From an uncultured Chloroflexia bacterium (lineage in GTDB: Bacteria; Chloroflexota; Chloroflexia; Thermomicrobiales; UBA6265), in NCBI GenBank assembly GCA_963741805.1, contig CAVUJR010000059.1, positions 9,242-73,241 of the forward strand: a stretch of DNA of 64,000 nucleotides, in the 5' to 3' direction. The translations under genes and the position numbers were made by a program. Positions 212 through 12,817 of the stretch are shown piece by piece. The notes beneath the pieces are model-generated. The model made no database searches and was not told the DNA's origin. It saw nothing but the letters and a program-made list of their open reading frames with translations. Position 1 is the stretch's first letter. Every line of letters begins with the position of its first letter.

Positions 212-1318
212 CTACCGAAGGGACGAGACGAGGTCGCCAAGGTCGTCGGCGGACGTGCCGACCGGGGGTTGGGCGAGGAAGACGTGCGTGATGCCCATCT
301 CGCGCATGTCCTCGAGGCGGGCGCGGACATCCGCCAGCGGGCCGGCGACAACGAGCTCACGCATGAGGTCGTTCGGGATCGCCCGTTTCGCGGCGGCGAG
401 GTCCCCGGCGCGGCGCAGATCGGCGAATCCCCCACCCTTCGCCAGGACCTCTTCGGTCCGCATCGCGACGCGGACCTCGGCAATAATGCGGTCCACATCG
501 TGGCCCGGGCTCATCAGCAAGCGCTCCATGTGCGGCAGTGCATGGATCATCGCGACGGTCGCCTTGCGCTTCTCGTAGGTCGCTTCCGGGTCATCCGTGA
601 CGAGCACCTGCGCCCGCGCGGCGAAGACGAATCCGGATGAATCGCGCCCGGCCTCCTCCGCGTGACGGCGGACGTCGGCAATCGCCTCGCGCATGAACTG
701 CATGGACGAGAGATCGTTGAAGATGACCCCGTCGGCGTGCTGGCCGGCGATGCGCATGGCGGTCGGGCCAACGGCGGCGAGGTAGATCGGCAGGTGCCCC
801 TGCAGCGGCCGGATGCTTCGCTCCCAGCCCTGCACGGGTAGCTCCGTGGCGCCGTCCGGAGCGCTTGCGCGCATCTCAGGCGACCACCACTGGCGCAGGA
901 GGCCGATCGACTCGACCAGGCGGCGGGTCGGCTTGCCGGTGTCCATGCCCATCGCGATGCGGTACCACTCGTCCTGCCCGCGACCGAAGCCGAGGAACGC
1001 GCGGCCGTCACTCAGCATGTCGAGCGTCGACATCGCCGCGGCGATGAGCGCGGGATGCCGGTAGTACGGGTTCGTGACGCCGGTGCCGAGGCGGATCCGG
1101 TCGGTTTGGCGGGCGATGGCGCCGAGCACGGCGAGCGCGTCCCAGCCGTCGGGATCCTCCAACAGCCACAACGAGTCGATGCCGGCCTGGTCACCGATGC
1201 GGCCGAGCTCGATGGTCCACTCGACGGCGCGGCGAATCGCATTGCGGTCACCCTTGCGCTGGGCAGAGCTCCATGGGCCTGGAGCGGCGTCAAGGCAAAA
1301 GGCGAGAGATGACGGCAT
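212..1318 (-). CDS. LLM-class (luciferase-like) flavin/F420-dependent oxidoreductase
   Basis: Long ORF with a luciferase-like pattern (DSLWLLEDPDGWDALAVLGAIA, RIRLGTGVTNPYYRHP, GRAFLGFGRG). I chose the ATG at 1318 because it abuts the stop of the upstream ORF. Confidence 0.8.
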   Translation of the reverse strand: MPSSLAFCLDAAPGPWSSAQRKGDRNAIRRAVEWTIELGRIGDQAGIDSLWLLEDPDGWDALAVLGAIARQTDRIRLGTGVTNPYYRHPALIAAAMSTLDMLSDGRAFLGFGRGQDEWYRIAMGMDTGKPTRRLVESIGLLRQWWSPEMRASAPDGATELPVQGWERSIRPLQGHLPIYLAAVGPTAMRIAGQHADGVIFNDLSSMQFMREAIADVRRHAEEAGRDSSGFVFAARAQVLVTDDPEATYEKRKATVAMIHALPHMERLLMSPGHDVDRIIAEVRVAMRTEEVLAKGGGFADLRRAGDLAAAKRAIPNDLMRELVVAGPLADVRARLEDMREMGITHVFLAQPPVGTSADDLGDLVSSLR

Positions 1319-1320
1319 AT

Positions 1321-1617
1321 CTACTCCATCCCTCCGTCGACCCAATCGAGGAAGGCGAGCACTTCCTCCCAGCCGTTCCCATCGGCGAGGGCATTCTCGG
1401 AGAGCATCGTGTCGCGAATGTAGCGGCTGAGGGAAAGTCGCAGCTCGGCGCGGGACATGTTCTCGACGGCACGGACGCAGCGACGATGGAGTTCGTAGGC
1501 ATCGTCCTCGTAGCGTTCGCGGGGCGTCATGTTGAAGAGGCGCTCGAGTGCTGCCCAGGTCTCGTGATGATCCATATGCTCCTCCCCCTGCCCGACGATA
1601 CGCCGCCAGTCAGTCAT
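1321..1617 (-). CDS. hypothetical protein (98 aa)
   Basis: ORF whose stop abuts the LLM start. GC3-biased codons. No family recognised. Confidence 0.45.
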   Translation of the reverse strand: MTDWRRIVGQGEEHMDHHETWAALERLFNMTPRERYEDDAYELHRRCVRAVENMSRAELRLSLSRYIRDTMLSENALADGNGWEEVLAFLDWVDGGME

Positions 1618-2359: not shown

Positions 2360-2662
2360 CTACGGCTCCCGGAAGTACACGATCCGGCCGCCCTGGCGCT
2401 CGTCGCCGAGACCGACGACGACCCCATCCACTTCCGGGTAGCCCGTCCACGCGTCGCCGCGCTTGGCCGACTCCGCCTGCTCCGGATCGACGAGCTGGGC
2501 ATACATGCCATGTCGGCCGCAGTACCAGACCTGGTCGGCGCCGTCGACGGGGCGCATACGATGGCGGTCGCGCGGGTGGCGCATGCCAACCTCGCAGAGC
2601 GGATTCGGGCCACTGGTCGTTGTCGAAGACATCGTTTGTCGCTTGCTCCCTGATAGAAACAT
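2360..2662 (-). CDS. hypothetical protein (about 90-100 aa, start uncertain)
   Basis: ORF upstream of and co-directional with 1745..2335. No family recognised. Confidence 0.35.
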   Translation of the reverse strand: MFLSGSKRQTMSSTTTSGPNPLCEVGMRHPRDRHRMRPVDGADQVWYCGRHGMYAQLVDPEQAESAKRGDAWTGYPEVDGVVVGLGDERQGGRIVYFREP

Positions 2663-4092: not shown

Positions 4093-4172
4093 GTTCGAGG
4101 GGTCGCTCCCGCTTTGGCTCCGCTGCGCAGAGCCACCCGGTGCGTCGCACATTGCAGTGCGACGCACCTACG
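4093..4172. repeat. REP-like element (CGCAGAGCCACCCGG + hairpin GTGCGTCGCAC-ATTGCA-GTGCGACGCAC + CTACG)
   Basis: Perfect 11-bp stem at 4140..4167. Related copies at 20190..20335 and 38418..38446. Confidence 0.7.
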
Positions 4173-4925
4173 TCACTCTTCCTGGATGGCGGTGCGGTAG
4201 GCGCTCCGTGCGGCGTCAAGCCACGTTTCCTCGTTGACGCCACGGTCGACGGCGCTCCGGGCAAGCGAAGCGAGCGCGGACTGCATATCCTGCGGCAGCG
4301 ATCCGTCCTCTTCGGCCTCCTGGGACGCTTCTCCCAAGGTCTCCTGCTGTGCGGCGGCGTCGACCATCGCCTTCGTGAGCTTCCCGGCTCGCTCGTAGGC
4401 GTCGCCGAGGTCCCCCTGGATGCGAGGATCCAGCTTGGCGGCGGCGAGCGCGACGGTGGGCGTAATCTGCCCCTCGGCGAGACCGATGAAGAGGCGGCGT
4501 TCGAGACGGGAGAGGGTCTCGCGCGTCCCGATCGTAGAGCTCGTCATGCCGGTCAGCTCGGGAAGCTTGCGGCGGTCGACGCCGGACCGTTCCAGCGCGC
4601 GCAAGGCCCACAGCTCGGTCACGTAATTGCCGGCGCGGAACTGGTTCGTCAGGAGCGTGAGCTGGGCTGCGTCGGCCTCGGTCGCCTCGGCAATGACCCG
4701 CGCCGGCACGATGTCGACCTCGGCCTCCCGGGCGGAGGCAACGCGCCGGTTGCCGTCAACGATGCCGTAGGCCAGCTCTCCTTCTTCACTAACGATCTCA
4801 CGCAGGATCACCGGGACCACAACGCCATGGCGACGCACGCTCTCGACCAACCTGTCCGACGGGCGCGGACCAACGGTGTGCTCGATCTCCGCCACCGGCA
4901 CATCACGACTGATGAGCTCAACCAC
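4173..4925 (-). CDS. ParB/Srx-fold N-terminal domain protein (ParB-like paralogue 2)
   Basis: HGVVVPVILREIV..GIVDGNRRVASAR (ParB GxxRxxA box) followed by an HTH-like region. The GTG start overlaps the upstream stop by 8 nt. Confidence 0.8.
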   Translation of the reverse strand: MVELISRDVPVAEIEHTVGPRPSDRLVESVRRHGVVVPVILREIVSEEGELAYGIVDGNRRVASAREAEVDIVPARVIAEATEADAAQLTLLTNQFRAGNYVTELWALRALERSGVDRRKLPELTGMTSSTIGTRETLSRLERRLFIGLAEGQITPTVALAAAKLDPRIQGDLGDAYERAGKLTKAMVDAAAQQETLGEASQEAEEDGSLPQDMQSALASLARSAVDRGVNEETWLDAARSAYRTAIQEE

Positions 4926-5895
4926 TGACCGCTCCCCTTGTAGCTTTCATCGTGGACTCCGCGTGCCGATATGCAATCGTCAGGGTCTCAACGAGAACTT
5001 CGAGCTTTATTCCTCGAGAGGAGGCCATCCGCGCTATCTCCTCGACCGCGTGCTCAACATCTTGTCCCAAGCCATCGGCCGGCGACGCATCCTGATGCGG
5101 GGCCGGGACGGCCAGGATCGTCGTACGCTCTTCGCGTTCCCCGGTAGGCGTGTATGTAGACGAGCTCGTCTGTTCAAGCGACGCCACCGTCGGGCATTGT
5201 GATAGTGCCACAGGGCTCGTCGCCAATCGCGGATCGCCAGATGTCTGTTGAGAAACCGGCCGGGCACCGGGGCCAACCGGGAAATCATTGGTAGACATCG
5301 ATCGCGCCGATCTGCGCGGCCCCGCCACGCGCTCGACATCCGCTGTCAGCACGCGCCCCGTCCGCGAAAAGAGATCGCCCAACTGCCGCTGTCGATCAGG
5401 GGACATTCGGGAAATCCTGTTCGCAACCGTCGCCGCAATCTTTCCCTCCGCGAAGCCCACAAATACCCTGCGATCAAGCGTCGACCAGCGGTTACGGCTC
5501 TCCAGATACTTCGCACTGATGCCTGCGTCATCCGCGATACAACTGCGGGATTGGCCGGAGCGCTCAAGGTGCTTGATCGCCCAGAACTCAGTGATGTCGT
5601 TGGCGGAGCGAAAGTTGTTGGCCGTGAGTGTCAACCGCGCAGCTTCGTCGGAACTGATATCCGTAAGGACCCGCGCCGGGACATCGGCATGGCTAAGGTG
5701 ACGAGCGGCCGCAACCCGGCGATTCCCGTCGATGATGCCGAACTGCAACTCCCCGTCGTCGGACACAACCTCCCGAAGCAGCACCGGCACCACGATTCCA
5801 TGGCGGCCCACGTTATCCATAAAGCGTTCTACCGGACTGGGGCCTACAGTCTTCCCGATCCGCGACAAAGGAACACGGCAATCCACGATCTCCAT
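4918..5895 (-). CDS. ParB/Srx-fold N-terminal domain protein (ParB-like paralogue 1)
   Basis: MEIVDC..HGIVVPVLLREVV..GIIDGNRRVAAAR aligns along its length with the downstream paralogue. A GGGGAGAG RBS precedes the ATG at 5895. Confidence 0.8.
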   Translation of the reverse strand: MEIVDCRVPLSRIGKTVGPSPVERFMDNVGRHGIVVPVLLREVVSDDGELQFGIIDGNRRVAAARHLSHADVPARVLTDISSDEAARLTLTANNFRSANDITEFWAIKHLERSGQSRSCIADDAGISAKYLESRNRWSTLDRRVFVGFAEGKIAATVANRISRMSPDRQRQLGDLFSRTGRVLTADVERVAGPRRSARSMSTNDFPVGPGARPVSQQTSGDPRLATSPVALSQCPTVASLEQTSSSTYTPTGEREERTTILAVPAPHQDASPADGLGQDVEHAVEEIARMASSRGIKLEVLVETLTIAYRHAESTMKATRGAVSG

Positions 5896-5951
5896 GAATG
5901 CTCTCCCCTGTTCTTTTTGCCAGTCGCCACAAGACGATCCTAACATGATCG

Positions 5952-5963
5952 GAACAAATGTTC
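5952..5963. promoter_or_regulatory. LexA/Cheo-box-like palindrome GAACAAATGTTC in the divergent promoter region
   Basis: Perfect GAAC-N4-GTTC adjacent to TATACA/TATAGA -10-like hexamers. It lies 57-68 nt upstream of the ParB-like start. Confidence 0.45.
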
Positions 5964-6070
5964 TATACATAACCAGGCGTAATTTGTTTAGGATCGGCTC
6001 TGCTAGACTCGCGCTACGGGCTGGCTCCCCATCGTCCTTGTCGGTCTTCTTTCCTTAGAAGGAGTCCTCT

Positions 6071-6667
6071 ATGAACGCCACCCTCTCCCGCCGCGCGTTC
6101 AGCGCGGGCCTCGCCCTTGGCCTTCCGGCCTCCTTACTCGGGACCACCGTCACCGGGCAATCGATCCTCGACCCCAACGGCACCGGCCTGGACCTCGAAA
6201 GCGCCCTGCTGCGCGTCTCACCGCACTACCTGCGTGATCTCCTGCTTTCCGCCCCGTTCACGGACGGCTCTACCTCCCGCCGCTGGGCGGATGTCGGCGA
6301 CACACCGTACTTCACCTCCGTCGGCGGGATATCCGTGCTCCGCGCCGGGTCAGACGTCGAGCTCGGCGCCTACAGCGTCTATCTCGCGCCCGCTGGCAGC
6401 CGCGCCGGGTCATATCTCGGCAAGCGCGCCCTGGAAGACACGACATCCGAGATCGTGGCGCGCGATATCGGCGGCTACACAGCCGACGTGCTGGTCTACA
6501 CCGACAGCGAGGACCGCGCATTGGCGCAAGTTACGATCGGGAACGTGATGGTGCTGGGGTACGACGTCGACGAGGCCGGCGCCTCGACAGCAGACGTTGA
6601 GCAGGCCGCCGCCAACGCCGACGTGCTCGTGGCGCATCTCCGCCAGCTGTTCGCGACAACCCGCTAG
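6071..6667 (+). CDS. secreted hypothetical protein
   Basis: AGGAG RBS and an N-terminal SRRAFSAGLALGLPASLLG signal-like segment. No family recognised. Confidence 0.6.
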   Translation: MNATLSRRAFSAGLALGLPASLLGTTVTGQSILDPNGTGLDLESALLRVSPHYLRDLLLSAPFTDGSTSRRWADVGDTPYFTSVGGISVLRAGSDVELGAYSVYLAPAGSRAGSYLGKRALEDTTSEIVARDIGGYTADVLVYTDSEDRALAQVTIGNVMVLGYDVDEAGASTADVEQAAANADVLVAHLRQLFATTR

Positions 6668-9059: not shown

Positions 9060-10323
9060 ATGAGTCAGCTCAGTGCCTTCCGTCAGCGGACGTTCGCGTC
9101 GCTGACCAATCGCAATTTCCGCCTCTTTTTCATCGGCCAGGCCATTTCCATGTCCGGGACATGGATGCAGACCGTCGCCCAGGGCCTCCTGGTCCTCCAG
9201 CTCACGGGATCAGGCACGGCGCTGGGTATCGTCACGGCGCTGCAGGCGCTCCCCGTGCTATTCTTCGGCGCATGGGGCGGGTTGGTCGCCGACCGCCTTC
9301 CGAAGCGCACCATCCTCTACGCCACCCAGGCGATCTTCGGCCTTTCCAGCCTGCTCCTCGGGTTCGTGATCCTTGGCGGATCGGTGCAACTGTGGATGGT
9401 CTACGGCCATCGCGCTGCTCAACGGCTTCCTGAAGGTCTTCGACAACCCGACGCGCCAGACGTTCGTGCGCGAGATGGTCGGCACGGAGCGACTGACGAA
9501 CGCCGTCGCGCTGAACTCGACGCTGATGAACTTCGCGCGCATCATCGGCCCGACGATGGCCGGCATCTTCGTCGCCACGCTCGGGCTGGCCGCCTGCTTC
9601 ATCATCAACGGCCTCTCATATGTGGCGATCATCTTCATGCTGGCGCGGATGCGGGCGGACGAGCTGCACCCGGCGCCGGTGATCAAACGCGCCAGCGGCC
9701 AGCTCGCCGAGGGCCTGCGCTATGCCTGGTCGACGCCCGCGATCCGCAACACCCTGCTGATGATGGCGATCATCGGGACGTTCACGTACGAGTTCAACGT
9801 CACCCTGCCGCTGCTGGCGGAGTTCTCGCTCGACGCCGGCGCCAGCGGCTATGCGGCGCTCACCTCCGCGATGGGCATCGGCGCGGTTATCGGCGGGCTT
9901 TTCACCGCCGGACGCCGCACCACCAACGCGGGCATGCTCATGCTCGCCGCCGCGCTCTTCGGCGTCTCGGTGACGCTCGTCTCGTTCGCTCCGACACTGC
10001 ACCTCGCCTTTGCCGCCATGCTCGTCGTGGGATTCTTCTCGATCACGTTTACCTCGATGGCCAACGTCACCCTGCAGACGACGAGCGATCCGACGATGCA
10101 GGGCCGGGTGATGTCGCTCTGGTCGATCGCCTTCCTTGGCACGACGCCGATCGGCGGACCGATCATGGGTATCATCGGCGAGCATGCCGGTGCCCGGTGG
10201 AGCTTGCTCATCGGCGGCATTGCGGCCATGCTCGCGGCCGTGCTCGCCCTCCAGGCACGACGCCAGCAAGCCTCCCGCCTGGCGACCGCGCATTCAGTCG
10301 CGACGGAGCGAACGGCCGGCTAA
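9060..10323 (+). pseudogene. MFS transporter (EntS/MFS_3-like) with an apparent +1 frameshift near 9405
   Basis: The N-terminal 115 aa are in frame 9060 and the remainder in frame 9373. Deleting one G at TAC-G-GCC-ATC restores ..LWMVYAIALLNGF... Confidence 0.8.
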
Positions 10324-12053: not shown

Positions 12054-12398
12054 CTAATATCGCTCCTGGAGGACTCTGTCGATTTGCTCCACGAGTTTCG
12101 GCAGTGAGATCGTCACGGTCTCATAAAGAATCACGTGATCGATCTCGTCATAGGAATGCACGATTCGGTTGCGAACGCCGACAGACACGCGAAGATCCGG
12201 GATCGCTTCTTCGAGCGTTGCATCCATCCTTCGCGCCGCGTTAAGCGCTTCTCCGATCACCTCGATCGTGCGCTCGACGATGAGCTTGACCCCTTCGTTC
12301 TTCAGATACGCATCCAGCGTCAAATCATCCACGAAACGCCTGGCTGTTTCCGCATAGTCACGGGCATGACGCAGCCGACGTTCCGGATTATCAGGCAT
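12054..12398 (-). CDS. hepT: HepT-like (DUF86) ribonuclease toxin
   Basis: RNRIVHSYDEID contains the Rx4HxY motif. The start overlaps the upstream MNT stop by 8 nt. Confidence 0.85.
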   Translation of the reverse strand: MPDNPERRLRHARDYAETARRFVDDLTLDAYLKNEGVKLIVERTIEVIGEALNAARRMDATLEEAIPDLRVSVGVRNRIVHSYDEIDHVILYETVTISLPKLVEQIDRVLQERY

Positions 12399-12699
12399 AC
12401 ATAGGGGTCCGCTGGCGTTCTACTTCCGCCCGGAATTCCTCGCTCCCAATCGAGCGCTCGGTCAGCAGATCAACGCTCCGCCCGAACAGACGCTCCAGAT
12501 CGTCTGCCAGATCGAGATAGCGGTACAGGATACCCTCTCGGGATGATCGAAGGTGACAAGGAAATCGAGGTCACTGGAATCGGTCGTCGAAGGCTCCGGT
12601 CGCGGCCGGAGCCAAAGAGGTCCAGACGCTGGACGCTGTACTTCCGGCAGAGCGGCCATGATCTCCTTCCCGTTTCTGCTCGACGATCTCGGCGACCAT
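12391..12699 (-). pseudogene. mntA: MNT-type nucleotidyltransferase antitoxin, multiply frame-disrupted
   Basis: Recognisable pieces lie in three different frames within about 180 bp: MVAEIVEQKRE / EIMAAL / CRKYSVQRLDLFGS / AATGAFDDRF / SDLDFLVTFDHPE / GILYRYLDLADDLERLFGRSVDLLTERS. Confidence 0.65.
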
Positions 12700-12817
12700 G
12701 GCGACCTCCGCGCGTATCCATTCGCTCACGTATGTCCATCATACAGAACGACGGGACAGCCCGGCTGCGCGAGGAGCCGACGCTCATGGGTCAGTTCGGG
12801 ACTACCGTGTGCGCCGG

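Follow-up and report, generated by a model that had tools for sequence, protein, structure and literature searches.

Overlapping orphan ParB-like genes behind a LexA-type box: a candidate SOS operon in uncultured Thermomicrobiales

Two overlapping genes for ParB-like proteins

Here we describe two adjacent genes, A and B, in a stretch of 64,000 nucleotides (the window) from the metagenome-assembled genome (MAG) of an uncultured Chloroflexia bacterium of the order Thermomicrobiales (GenBank assembly GCA_963741805.1, contig CAVUJR010000059.1, positions 9,242 to 73,241). Both lie on the minus strand and code for proteins similar to ParB. From the DNA letters alone, an original prediction had seen in them a translationally coupled tandem of paralogues with no ParA partner. 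The genes and their expression signals are as follows.

4173-4925, minus strand: gene A, the downstream paralogue; GTG start, 250 aa; ParB_N domain, helix-turn-helix (HTH) and three-helix C-terminal domain
4918-5895, minus strand: gene B, the upstream paralogue; ATG at 5895, 325 aa, with the longest frame reaching 5970; ParB_N and HTH in residues 1-190, disordered S/T/P-rich linker at ~195-275, C-terminal helical hairpin at 278-323
4918-4925, minus strand: overlap of A and B, 8 nt, GTGGTTGA on the gene strand
Just upstream of the overlap, within the 3' end of B: Shine-Dalgarno-like sequence for A, AAGGGGAG
5901-5908, minus strand: Shine-Dalgarno-like sequence for B, GGGGAGAG, 7 nt 5' of the ATG
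5951-5964, minus strand: LexA (Cheo-type) operator, AGAACATTTGTTCC on the gene strand, with the core GAAC-N4-GTTC at 5952-5963, ~55-65 nt 5' of the B ATG

The overlap is as originally predicted, and A starts with its GTG within the final codons and the TGA stop of B. It is conserved in all five lineages with the pair, and translational coupling of B and A is supported. L032 and L055 retain the Shine-Dalgarno-like site of B, too, in the form GGGGGGAA or GGAGAG. That the two proteins align along most of their length is borne out by BLASTP, which gave an ungapped match of 191 aa at 45% identity (E 2e-58) and a second one over the C-terminal ~45 aa at 36% identity (E 2e-4). Open reading frames, mutual similarity and the Pfam and NCBIfam matches below all tell us that the observation of paired ParB-like genes was correct.

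Domain matches and predicted fold

The Pfam model for ParB_N (PF02195), a check that the original prediction had proposed, matches A at 37.5 bits (E 2.5e-9) and thus over the cut-off of 26.3, and B at 25.6 bits (E 1.3e-5), slightly under it. NCBIfam models for ParB (parB_part), Noc, PRTRC-ParB and RepB match A and B alike, with E 1e-8 to 1e-10 and scores far below their curated cut-offs. With TIGR00180, A reaches 37.8 bits and B 38.7 bits, which is below the canonical ParB threshold of 58.45, and TIGR04285 (Noc), the top NCBIfam match for A, stays below threshold at 40 bits (cut-off 315). A profile built from 20 family members and run against the PDB found ParB and Noc structures at E 5e-15 to 5e-11: Spo0J of T. 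thermophilus (1vz0) was best (E 5e-15), with the N-terminal domain and the HTH covered, and Noc plus the ParBs of C. crescentus, M. xanthus and B. subtilis came at E 1e-11 to 1e-13. KorB, PadC and SerK ranked much lower.

In the AlphaFold2 model of A (mean pLDDT 92), residues 185-249 form a C-terminal domain of three helices, preceded by the ParB N-terminal domain and a DNA-binding domain that is helical. B is modelled with the fold of A for residues 1-190, then the disordered S/T/P-rich linker of ~80 residues and, at its end, a confident C-terminal helical hairpin (pLDDT >90 at 1-190 and 280-320, <50 at 225-270). In both models the first beta-strand of the domain opens the protein (A E4-10, B E2-9), and family members start at alignment residues 2-10 without any N-terminal extension. 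Foldseek searches with the A model returned CTP- or CDP-bound ParB, Noc and Spo0J first, followed by KorB and PadC; the probability was 1.0 for CTP-bound ParB, Noc and KorB, and KorB had the best TM-score (0.46-0.53). As modelled, both proteins are shown to combine a ParB N-terminal nucleotide-binding fold with a ParB-type HTH and a common small helical C-terminal domain. So the ParB fold is backed by profile and structure matches alike, and the ParB-like domain, arginine box (DGNRR), HTH and similar helical C-termini that had been read from the translations have all stood up.

Orphan status of the pair

By regular-expression scan, A and B are both without a ParA-binding peptide ([LIFV]G[KR]G[LIFV]), whereas LGRGL is present, along with QPR, GERR and ENVVR, in the ParB that this genome encodes on contig C3. 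On the 82,994-bp contig that holds the window (C59) we found neither ParA (PF13614 AAA_31 plus a Walker-A KGGxGK[ST] scan) nor a tyrosine integrase, in agreement with the lack of both that had been noted near the pair. An adjacent parA, which would turn the locus into an ordinary partition module, was looked for along all 83 kb and not found. ParA-type genes of this genome are confined to C25/C26, with Mrp and ArsA on other contigs; on C25/C26, one of them lies immediately in front of another ParB. Canonical parS (4 sites) occurs only on C8 and C44. Partners of the KorA/IncC type are missing as well: there is no ParA/IncC on the contig and no close plasmid relative, and the adjacent small proteins are without HTH or known family.

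Orphan ParBs have been defined as proteins that are clearly similar to ParB, CTPase fold included, that are encoded outside a parAB operon and that lack the ParA-binding motif; the class is reportedly widespread and common (bioRxiv 10.1101/2025.10.10.680097). Going by their sequences, A and B are orphan ParBs in this sense, and the original prediction's view that such proteins outside a partition locus are unusual is not supported.

No conserved palindrome was found at the pair locus. A dispersed Noc-like binding motif was rejected, too, since a genome-wide count of exact 14- and 16-bp palindromes gave only parS, LexA boxes and GC-rich noise as over-represented. Similarly, we discarded a prophage or plasmid origin: tblastn against 50,697 phage records produced no match to the pair and against 72,556 plasmids a single weak one (35% identity over 35% of the query), the contig is free of integrases, and PHROG returned generic ParB-like families only (E 1e-10 to 1e-13), with scores no better than those to chromosomal ParBs. 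With the position of the locus being syntenic across genera, the earlier idea of a prophage or integrative and conjugative element (ICE) remnant is one we do not retain. A megaplasmid location was rejected because in G034 the locus sits on a 956-kb contig that also bears recA. As for the defence or anti-defence role that had been raised, PADLOC had no significant match for A and a marginal one for B (PD-Lambda-5_A, E 0.006), and in want of a meaningful match this candidate was dropped as well.

A LexA-type box upstream of B

The box 5' of B overlaps a -10-like TATAGA (plus-strand 5962-5967) and matches the Cheo box of Gram-positive bacteria and Dehalococcoides. In this genome, lexA, recA and both copies of ruvB have the same GAAC-N4-GTTC box 5' of them. 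Among 10 related genomes, recA is preceded by the exact box in six and by a one-mismatch form (AGAAC-N4-[AT]TTCT) in four, and five of the 10 are without the ParB-like family. Because the box precedes recA in such family-less genomes, we see it as the LexA operator of these organisms and have rejected the option that it is the ParB-like protein's own site. Exact boxes number 62 in the genome, with ~40 expected by chance; 25 were called intergenic, and the site of the pair makes a 26th, since the gene caller had extended the B frame across it. A position weight matrix trained only on the recA, lexA and ruvB sites scores it at 15.1 bits, rank 34 of 3.86 million positions.

Further support comes from relatives of A and B. 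In 12 loci from three genera, a box is found 59-79 nt 5' of the ParB-like start, while flanking sequence and divergent neighbour vary among them. It is exact in seven (window, G097, G144, L056, G061 and the long paralogues G138:C122 and G034:207640) and has one mismatch in five (L032, L055, G136, G087, G009); G064 has an exact box, too, at 250 nt upstream. Units of two neighbouring genes, fam2 and LLM (see below), that occur without a ParB-like gene are devoid of the box, which therefore appears to travel with the ParB-like gene. Given that the box precedes recA, lexA and ruvB, also where the family is missing, the B-A operon is probably SOS-regulated, and we conclude from these comparisons that LexA control may well be an ancestral, frequently retained feature of the ParB-like family. 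Our literature search on SOS-regulated ParB-like proteins returned nothing relevant.

Strong palindromic LexA boxes (e.g. TAGAACATATGTTCTA) were also seen 5' of unannotated genes at C60:16109, C62:189266, C13:12027, C41:11701, C46:5712, C57:15250 and C45:25616. One of these genes encodes a ~110-aa protein in two copies (…APPYRWVCPCHEPP…), and as a group they are candidate lineage-specific SOS genes.

A family of mostly single genes, with B as an addition

Some 75 proteins related to A and B came out of a word-indexed search of 5.8 billion proteins, those with a name being labelled Thermomicrobiales, and exhaustive phmmer over 1.84 billion representatives gave 25 clusters at E<=1e-30, so that the family comprises about 25-30 clusters. 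Below this level, matches shade into generic ParBs with N-terminal extensions. Within the order, 17 of 151 genomes have a match, and all except one weak match fall into three genera of one family.

Members mostly occur as single genes. In the tree, an A clade (A1 plus A2) stands beside a distinct, long-branched B clade, and B occurs only with A1-type genes (window, L032, G144, L055, L056), directly upstream of and overlapping A on all five contigs, by 23 nt in L055 and 8 nt in the other four. The closest genome, G097, has an A that is 91% identical but no B: at L033 (G097:C10) 9150-9310, B is cleanly gone, the LexA-box promoter is fused to A, and A has gained a short new N-terminus (MMDMRRRQTVVQLM…). 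Co-occurrence of the pair, which the original prediction had suggested checking, is thus one-sided: B is always found with A, while the A-type gene is mostly alone, the closest genome included. To judge from tree and gene order, the single gene is the ancestral state and B an extra, faster-evolving copy of one subclade, always overlapping A, which makes the B-A pair a lineage-specific addition to a normally single gene.

Ratios of nonsynonymous to synonymous substitution (dN/dS) are 0.11-0.24 for A and 0.22-0.30 for B, and inside B they amount to 0.12-0.21 over the N-terminal 190 codons and 0.35-0.45 over linker and tail. Since values for both genes are low (<0.35), A and B are maintained by purifying selection. 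In the window, the G+C content at third codon positions (GC3) is 0.67 for B as opposed to 0.82 for A. This is a stable trait of five lineages with saturated synonymous sites (including L032, L034, L055 and L056), with 0.65-0.69 for B, 0.82-0.86 for A and 0.80-0.90 for neighbours, and it has no obvious cause. A separate observation concerns g7 genomes (L035 = G034:C1 7531-8777; L028 = G138:C122), which have two unlinked family members ~10 kb apart. The long one (358-409 aa) has an exact LexA box at about -60, the short one adjoins fam2-LLM and has no box, and together they parallel the long and short proteins B and A of the window.

Nucleotide-binding motifs and recognition helices

Invariant in 67 family sequences are D57-G-N-R-R61 (the DGNRR arginine box), N94, R97, N100 and E104. 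Aligned to Spo0J and the genome's own canonical ParB, the family has GNRR in place of GERR and (T/A)NxFR in place of ENxxR, its TNQFR falling on the ENVVR or ENLQR of canonical ParBs; box I reads GPxP instead of QPR and is ~6 residues shorter. So while the phosphate-contacting R60, R61, N94 and R97 are retained, the Gln and both Glu positions are replaced. In canonical ParBs, CTP hydrolysis is lost when these positions are mutated, and M. xanthus ParB structures with such mutations (Q52A, E93A) are among the Foldseek/PDB matches of A. The alignment of CTP-binding residues that the original prediction had called for therefore cuts both ways: the phosphate-binding GxRR and NxxR are kept, the catalytic positions in QPR, GERR and ENxxR are not. 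From the former, nucleotide-gated clamp closure like that of ParB, Noc and KorB seems probable; from the latter, clamps may be long-lived or a different nucleotide may be used. Nucleotide specificity of orphan ParBs cannot be predicted from sequence (bioRxiv 10.1101/2025.10.10.680097). The predicted recognition helices differ between B (AKYLESRNRWSTL) and A (SSTIGTRETLSRL), each being conserved inside its own clade.

Repeats and neighbouring genes

Around the pair, the following further features were located.

~4095-4142: short dispersed REP-like (repetitive extragenic palindromic) repeat in the spacer between A and the PEBP gene, found by blastn-short against the whole genome
4139-4168: perfect 12-bp-stem hairpin (GGTGCGTCGCAC-N6-GTGCGACGCACC), 5 nt past the A stop, found by repeat search
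5932-5999: imperfect inverted repeat (AGACGATCCTAA / TTAGGATCGGCT; arms 5932-5943 and 5988-5999) that brackets the promoter and LexA box
MNT/HepT sites: L032:732-1383, L033:2499-3171, L037:11389-13536, L038:8324-9755 and window ~12054-12700

The hairpin is present once in the genome, has no T-run and was not called by the terminator scan, but transcription may end there. We rejected it as a REP element, because the dispersed repeat is a different element of 21-48 nt that adjoins it. The latter has at least 10 genome copies, its 21-nt core being exact in at least six other contigs, with matches of 41-82 nt at 83-93% identity. So of the REP elements that had been proposed to flank the locus, the dispersed repeat stands and the hairpin does not. 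The inverted repeat around the promoter was rejected as an operator or parS, as its arms are unconserved in L032, G097 and G144; it is specific to this lineage and probably no conserved operator.

The divergent neighbour (6071-6667, plus strand) encodes a hypothetical protein without Pfam match. Its leader/promoter region (5975-6070, plus strand) contains a ~75-nt block that is near-identical in the window, L032 and G097 (…GCTAGACTCGCGCTACGGGCTGGCTCCC…) and partly so in G144, and which could be a conserved promoter or 5'-UTR element.

On the other side, three genera have the ParB-like gene upstream of fam2, a small unannotated protein (window 2360-2662, minus strand). Within the window's genus, fam2 is followed by two more small proteins, LLM (luciferase-like monooxygenase, 212-1345, minus strand) and a ~2,000-aa SpaA-repeat surface protein; in the window, the PEBP gene and another gene on the opposite strand sit between A and fam2. 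The fam2-LLM-SpaA block is also found without any ParB-like gene in other Thermomicrobiales, fam2 being the more widespread family. Because the block exists alone and the PEBP gene intervenes, we see this synteny as a shared chromosomal position rather than a functional unit, and an obligatory link of the pair to these neighbours was rejected, the unit being found without ParB-like gene and without LexA box.

The fam2 proteins (window 2360-2662; L006:10819-11088) are 74-100 aa in length and contain Cys and His residues (…CEVGMRHPRDRHRMRP…FCNRH…), and they match nothing in Pfam, PHROG or PADLOC. They form at least 120 clusters, the named ones Thermomicrobiales, and are always directly 5' of an LLM-class oxidoreductase, often with the giant SpaA-repeat protein next. 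Toxin-antitoxin pairs of the MNT/HepT type (nucleotidyltransferase/HEPN) recur a few kb from the ParB-like locus in several genera, with several tandem copies in G087. Finally, near-identical loci lie on several contigs of the MAG (C25/C26, C41/C46, C60/C62, C15/C16/C17; ruvB on C2 and C3) and include parAB, LexA-box regions and repeats. Contamination of 6.9% or strain redundancy would fit this duplication, so copy numbers need care.

Discussion

Our findings make it likely, to our minds, that A and B are LexA-controlled orphan ParB-type DNA-binding paralogues. With less assurance, though still leaning towards it, we propose that B-A is a two-gene operon of orphan ParB/Noc-type DNA-binding proteins in the LexA (SOS) regulon of these Thermomicrobiales. 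A nucleoid or transcription regulator pair, one of the options offered by the original prediction, is still the best functional class. Several points weigh against such a reading. The site of the pair, at 15 bits, is well under those of recA and lexA (22-25 bits); the box is absent in L006 and G103 (A2 clade), in the g7 orthologues adjoining fam2-LLM and in G058; and the intergenic region is shared with the divergent gene 6071-6667, which the box could also control. The source genome is an uncultured MAG, with SOS regulation read from its sequence. In addition, box I is divergent and ~6 residues short, nucleotide binding being deduced from conservation of the P-motifs, no candidate binding site for A/B emerged from the palindrome count and the local inverted repeat is unconserved, and A functions alone in most lineages.

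Alternatively, the pair might be a KorB/VirB-like local regulator of its neighbours - the divergent gene or fam2-LLM-SpaA - and unrelated to DNA damage, the box being incidental or serving the divergent gene. The best TM-score of KorB would be in line with this, as would the conserved order of ParB-like gene, fam2, LLM and giant SpaA-repeat protein in three genera, the fact that the ParB-like gene abuts or overlaps fam2 in G087 and G061, and a plus-strand promoter-like site (5917-5946) from which the +1 of the divergent gene would fall on the box. However, the box stays with ParB-like genes despite different divergent neighbours (G061, G138:C122, G034:207640, g3 genomes), the fam2-LLM-SpaA unit exists without ParB-like gene or box, and in the window the opposite-strand PEBP gene parts A from fam2, so we hold this scenario to be unlikely. 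More improbable still is a domesticated or decaying maintenance or partition remnant of an integrated plasmid, prophage or ICE from which LexA control was inherited. Orphan ParBs are enriched on mobile elements (bioRxiv 10.1101/2025.10.10.680097), SOS control is typical of prophages, MNT/HepT pairs and variable genes lie in the region in several genomes, and PHROG does list ParB-like families among the matches. Yet phage and plasmid collections gave next to nothing and the PHROG scores do not exceed those to chromosomal ParBs; the 83-kb contig has no integrase or ParA, purifying selection acts on A as well as B, and the locus keeps its chromosomal position over three genera, with recA on the locus contig in G034 and G087.

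The ParB/Srx fold might also act as an enzyme and not as a DNA clamp, for instance as a nuclease (e.g. one induced by SOS) or an ATP-dependent kinase/transferase like Srx or SerK. We noted weak matches to SerK (NCBIfam E 0.015-0.044; PDB 5x0j, E 3e-3) and to sulfiredoxin folds, the residues for hydrolysis in canonical ParB are replaced, and ATP and GTP binders are known among orphan ParBs (bioRxiv 10.1101/2025.10.10.680097). The best matches, however, cover N-terminal domain and HTH of CTP-clamp ParBs and are 8-10 orders of magnitude better than those to Srx/SerK, and HTH and C-terminal dimerisation-like domain are conserved, which leaves little to recommend an enzyme. Least probable of all, in our view, is a component of anti-phage defence or anti-defence. 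It could draw on the marginal PADLOC match of B and on toxin-antitoxin genes plus a restriction-modification cassette elsewhere in the window, but A is without a significant match, the defence genes are not adjacent to the pair, and the LexA box, like the core-genome-like synteny, suggests a different role.

Returning to a LexA-controlled operon, a scenario may be envisaged in which LexA would occlude the -10/+1 region of B-A in the undamaged cell. DNA damage would remove LexA, upon which B and A would be made together by coupled translation. A would dimerise via its C-terminal helices and, where B is present, A-B dimers might form via the helices that both share, while the HTH would bind specific DNA. 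Like ParB, Noc and KorB, the proteins might act as nucleotide-gated clamps, which poor hydrolysis could render long-lived unless another nucleotide is used. In the damage response they may organise DNA, occlude it or silence genes, rather than segregate DNA. B would be an accessory, either a heterodimer partner or a modifier of A. With its different recognition helix, its long disordered linker and its never being found without A, B most likely acts through A. We regard the details of clamp and heterodimer as tentative, with the odds somewhat against them. A more specific version - a damage-induced, naturally hydrolysis-deficient heterodimeric clamp of A and B, in which B supplies a second recognition helix and a disordered tether, and which compacts or occludes the nucleoid or blocks division or replication restart during SOS - is one that we consider rather unlikely. 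If true, it would make a switch of the ParB-CTPase fold part of DNA-damage control, and no ParB clamp before it would have been heteromeric.

How does the pair compare with known systems? With canonical ParB/Spo0J (PDB 1vz0, 6sdk, 6t1f, 7bnk; TIGR00180) it has the architecture of N-terminal domain plus HTH in common, and the best profile match (E 5e-15) is found here. Unlike them, the family has no ParA-binding motif or adjacent parA, canonical parS lies on other contigs of the window's genome (C8 and C44), and the family scores 38-39 bits where 58.45 are required, reads GNRR and T/A-NxxR, and has a different, all-helical C-terminal domain. Noc (PDB 7ol9, 7nfu; TIGR04285), a ParB paralogue that arose by duplication, is a ParA-free CTP-dependent clamp with a non-segregation role, and it is the top NCBIfam match for A and among the top structure matches. 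The score, though, is 40 bits out of 315, the catalytic residues of the family are replaced and a dispersed binding motif was not found. Also, A and B start directly at ParB_N, which leaves no room for an N-terminal amphipathic membrane-targeting helix of the Noc type. Noc is not known to be SOS-regulated. KorB of RK2 (PDB 8qa8, 8qa9) and VirB of Shigella (PMC10770331) resemble the pair as ParB-fold CTP-dependent DNA binders that act as transcription regulators, but both are plasmid-borne, KorB has the partners KorA and IncC (a ParA), of which there is no counterpart here, and its profile match is weak (E 1e-3). In similarity to ParB including the N-terminal nucleotide-binding fold, in distance from parA and in absence of the LG[KR]GL peptide, A and B are like the orphan ParBs described before (bioRxiv 10.1101/2025.10.10.680097). 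What sets them apart is a very small family restricted to Thermomicrobiales, with invariant GNRR, short box I, a conserved operator for LexA and, within one subclade, a tandem paralogue that overlaps, traits for which we found no description among orphan ParBs in the literature. So from their sequences, the pair looks like a small, lineage-restricted, damage-inducible branch of known orphan ParBs.

SulA, YneA, SidA and ChiZ are lineage-specific division or nucleoid factors induced by SOS, which are small, taxonomically restricted and directly under a LexA operator. Their folds are unrelated and act on the divisome, and no link of A or B to division was seen. Switches of the ParB-fold CTP type are a recently recognised class, and few have known roles other than segregation (Noc, KorB, VirB, PadC, BisD). 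With a tiny family confined to uncultured or little-studied Thermomicrobiales, practical weight is limited; what is of interest is the link to SOS and the fact that B always comes with A. To the class of ParB-fold switches, the family would add direct LexA control, a context we did not find reported in the literature searched, and natural substitutions at positions where mutation abolishes CTP hydrolysis in model ParBs. Moreover, a coupled pair in which B is never without A would lend itself directly to the question of whether heteromeric ParB clamps can exist.

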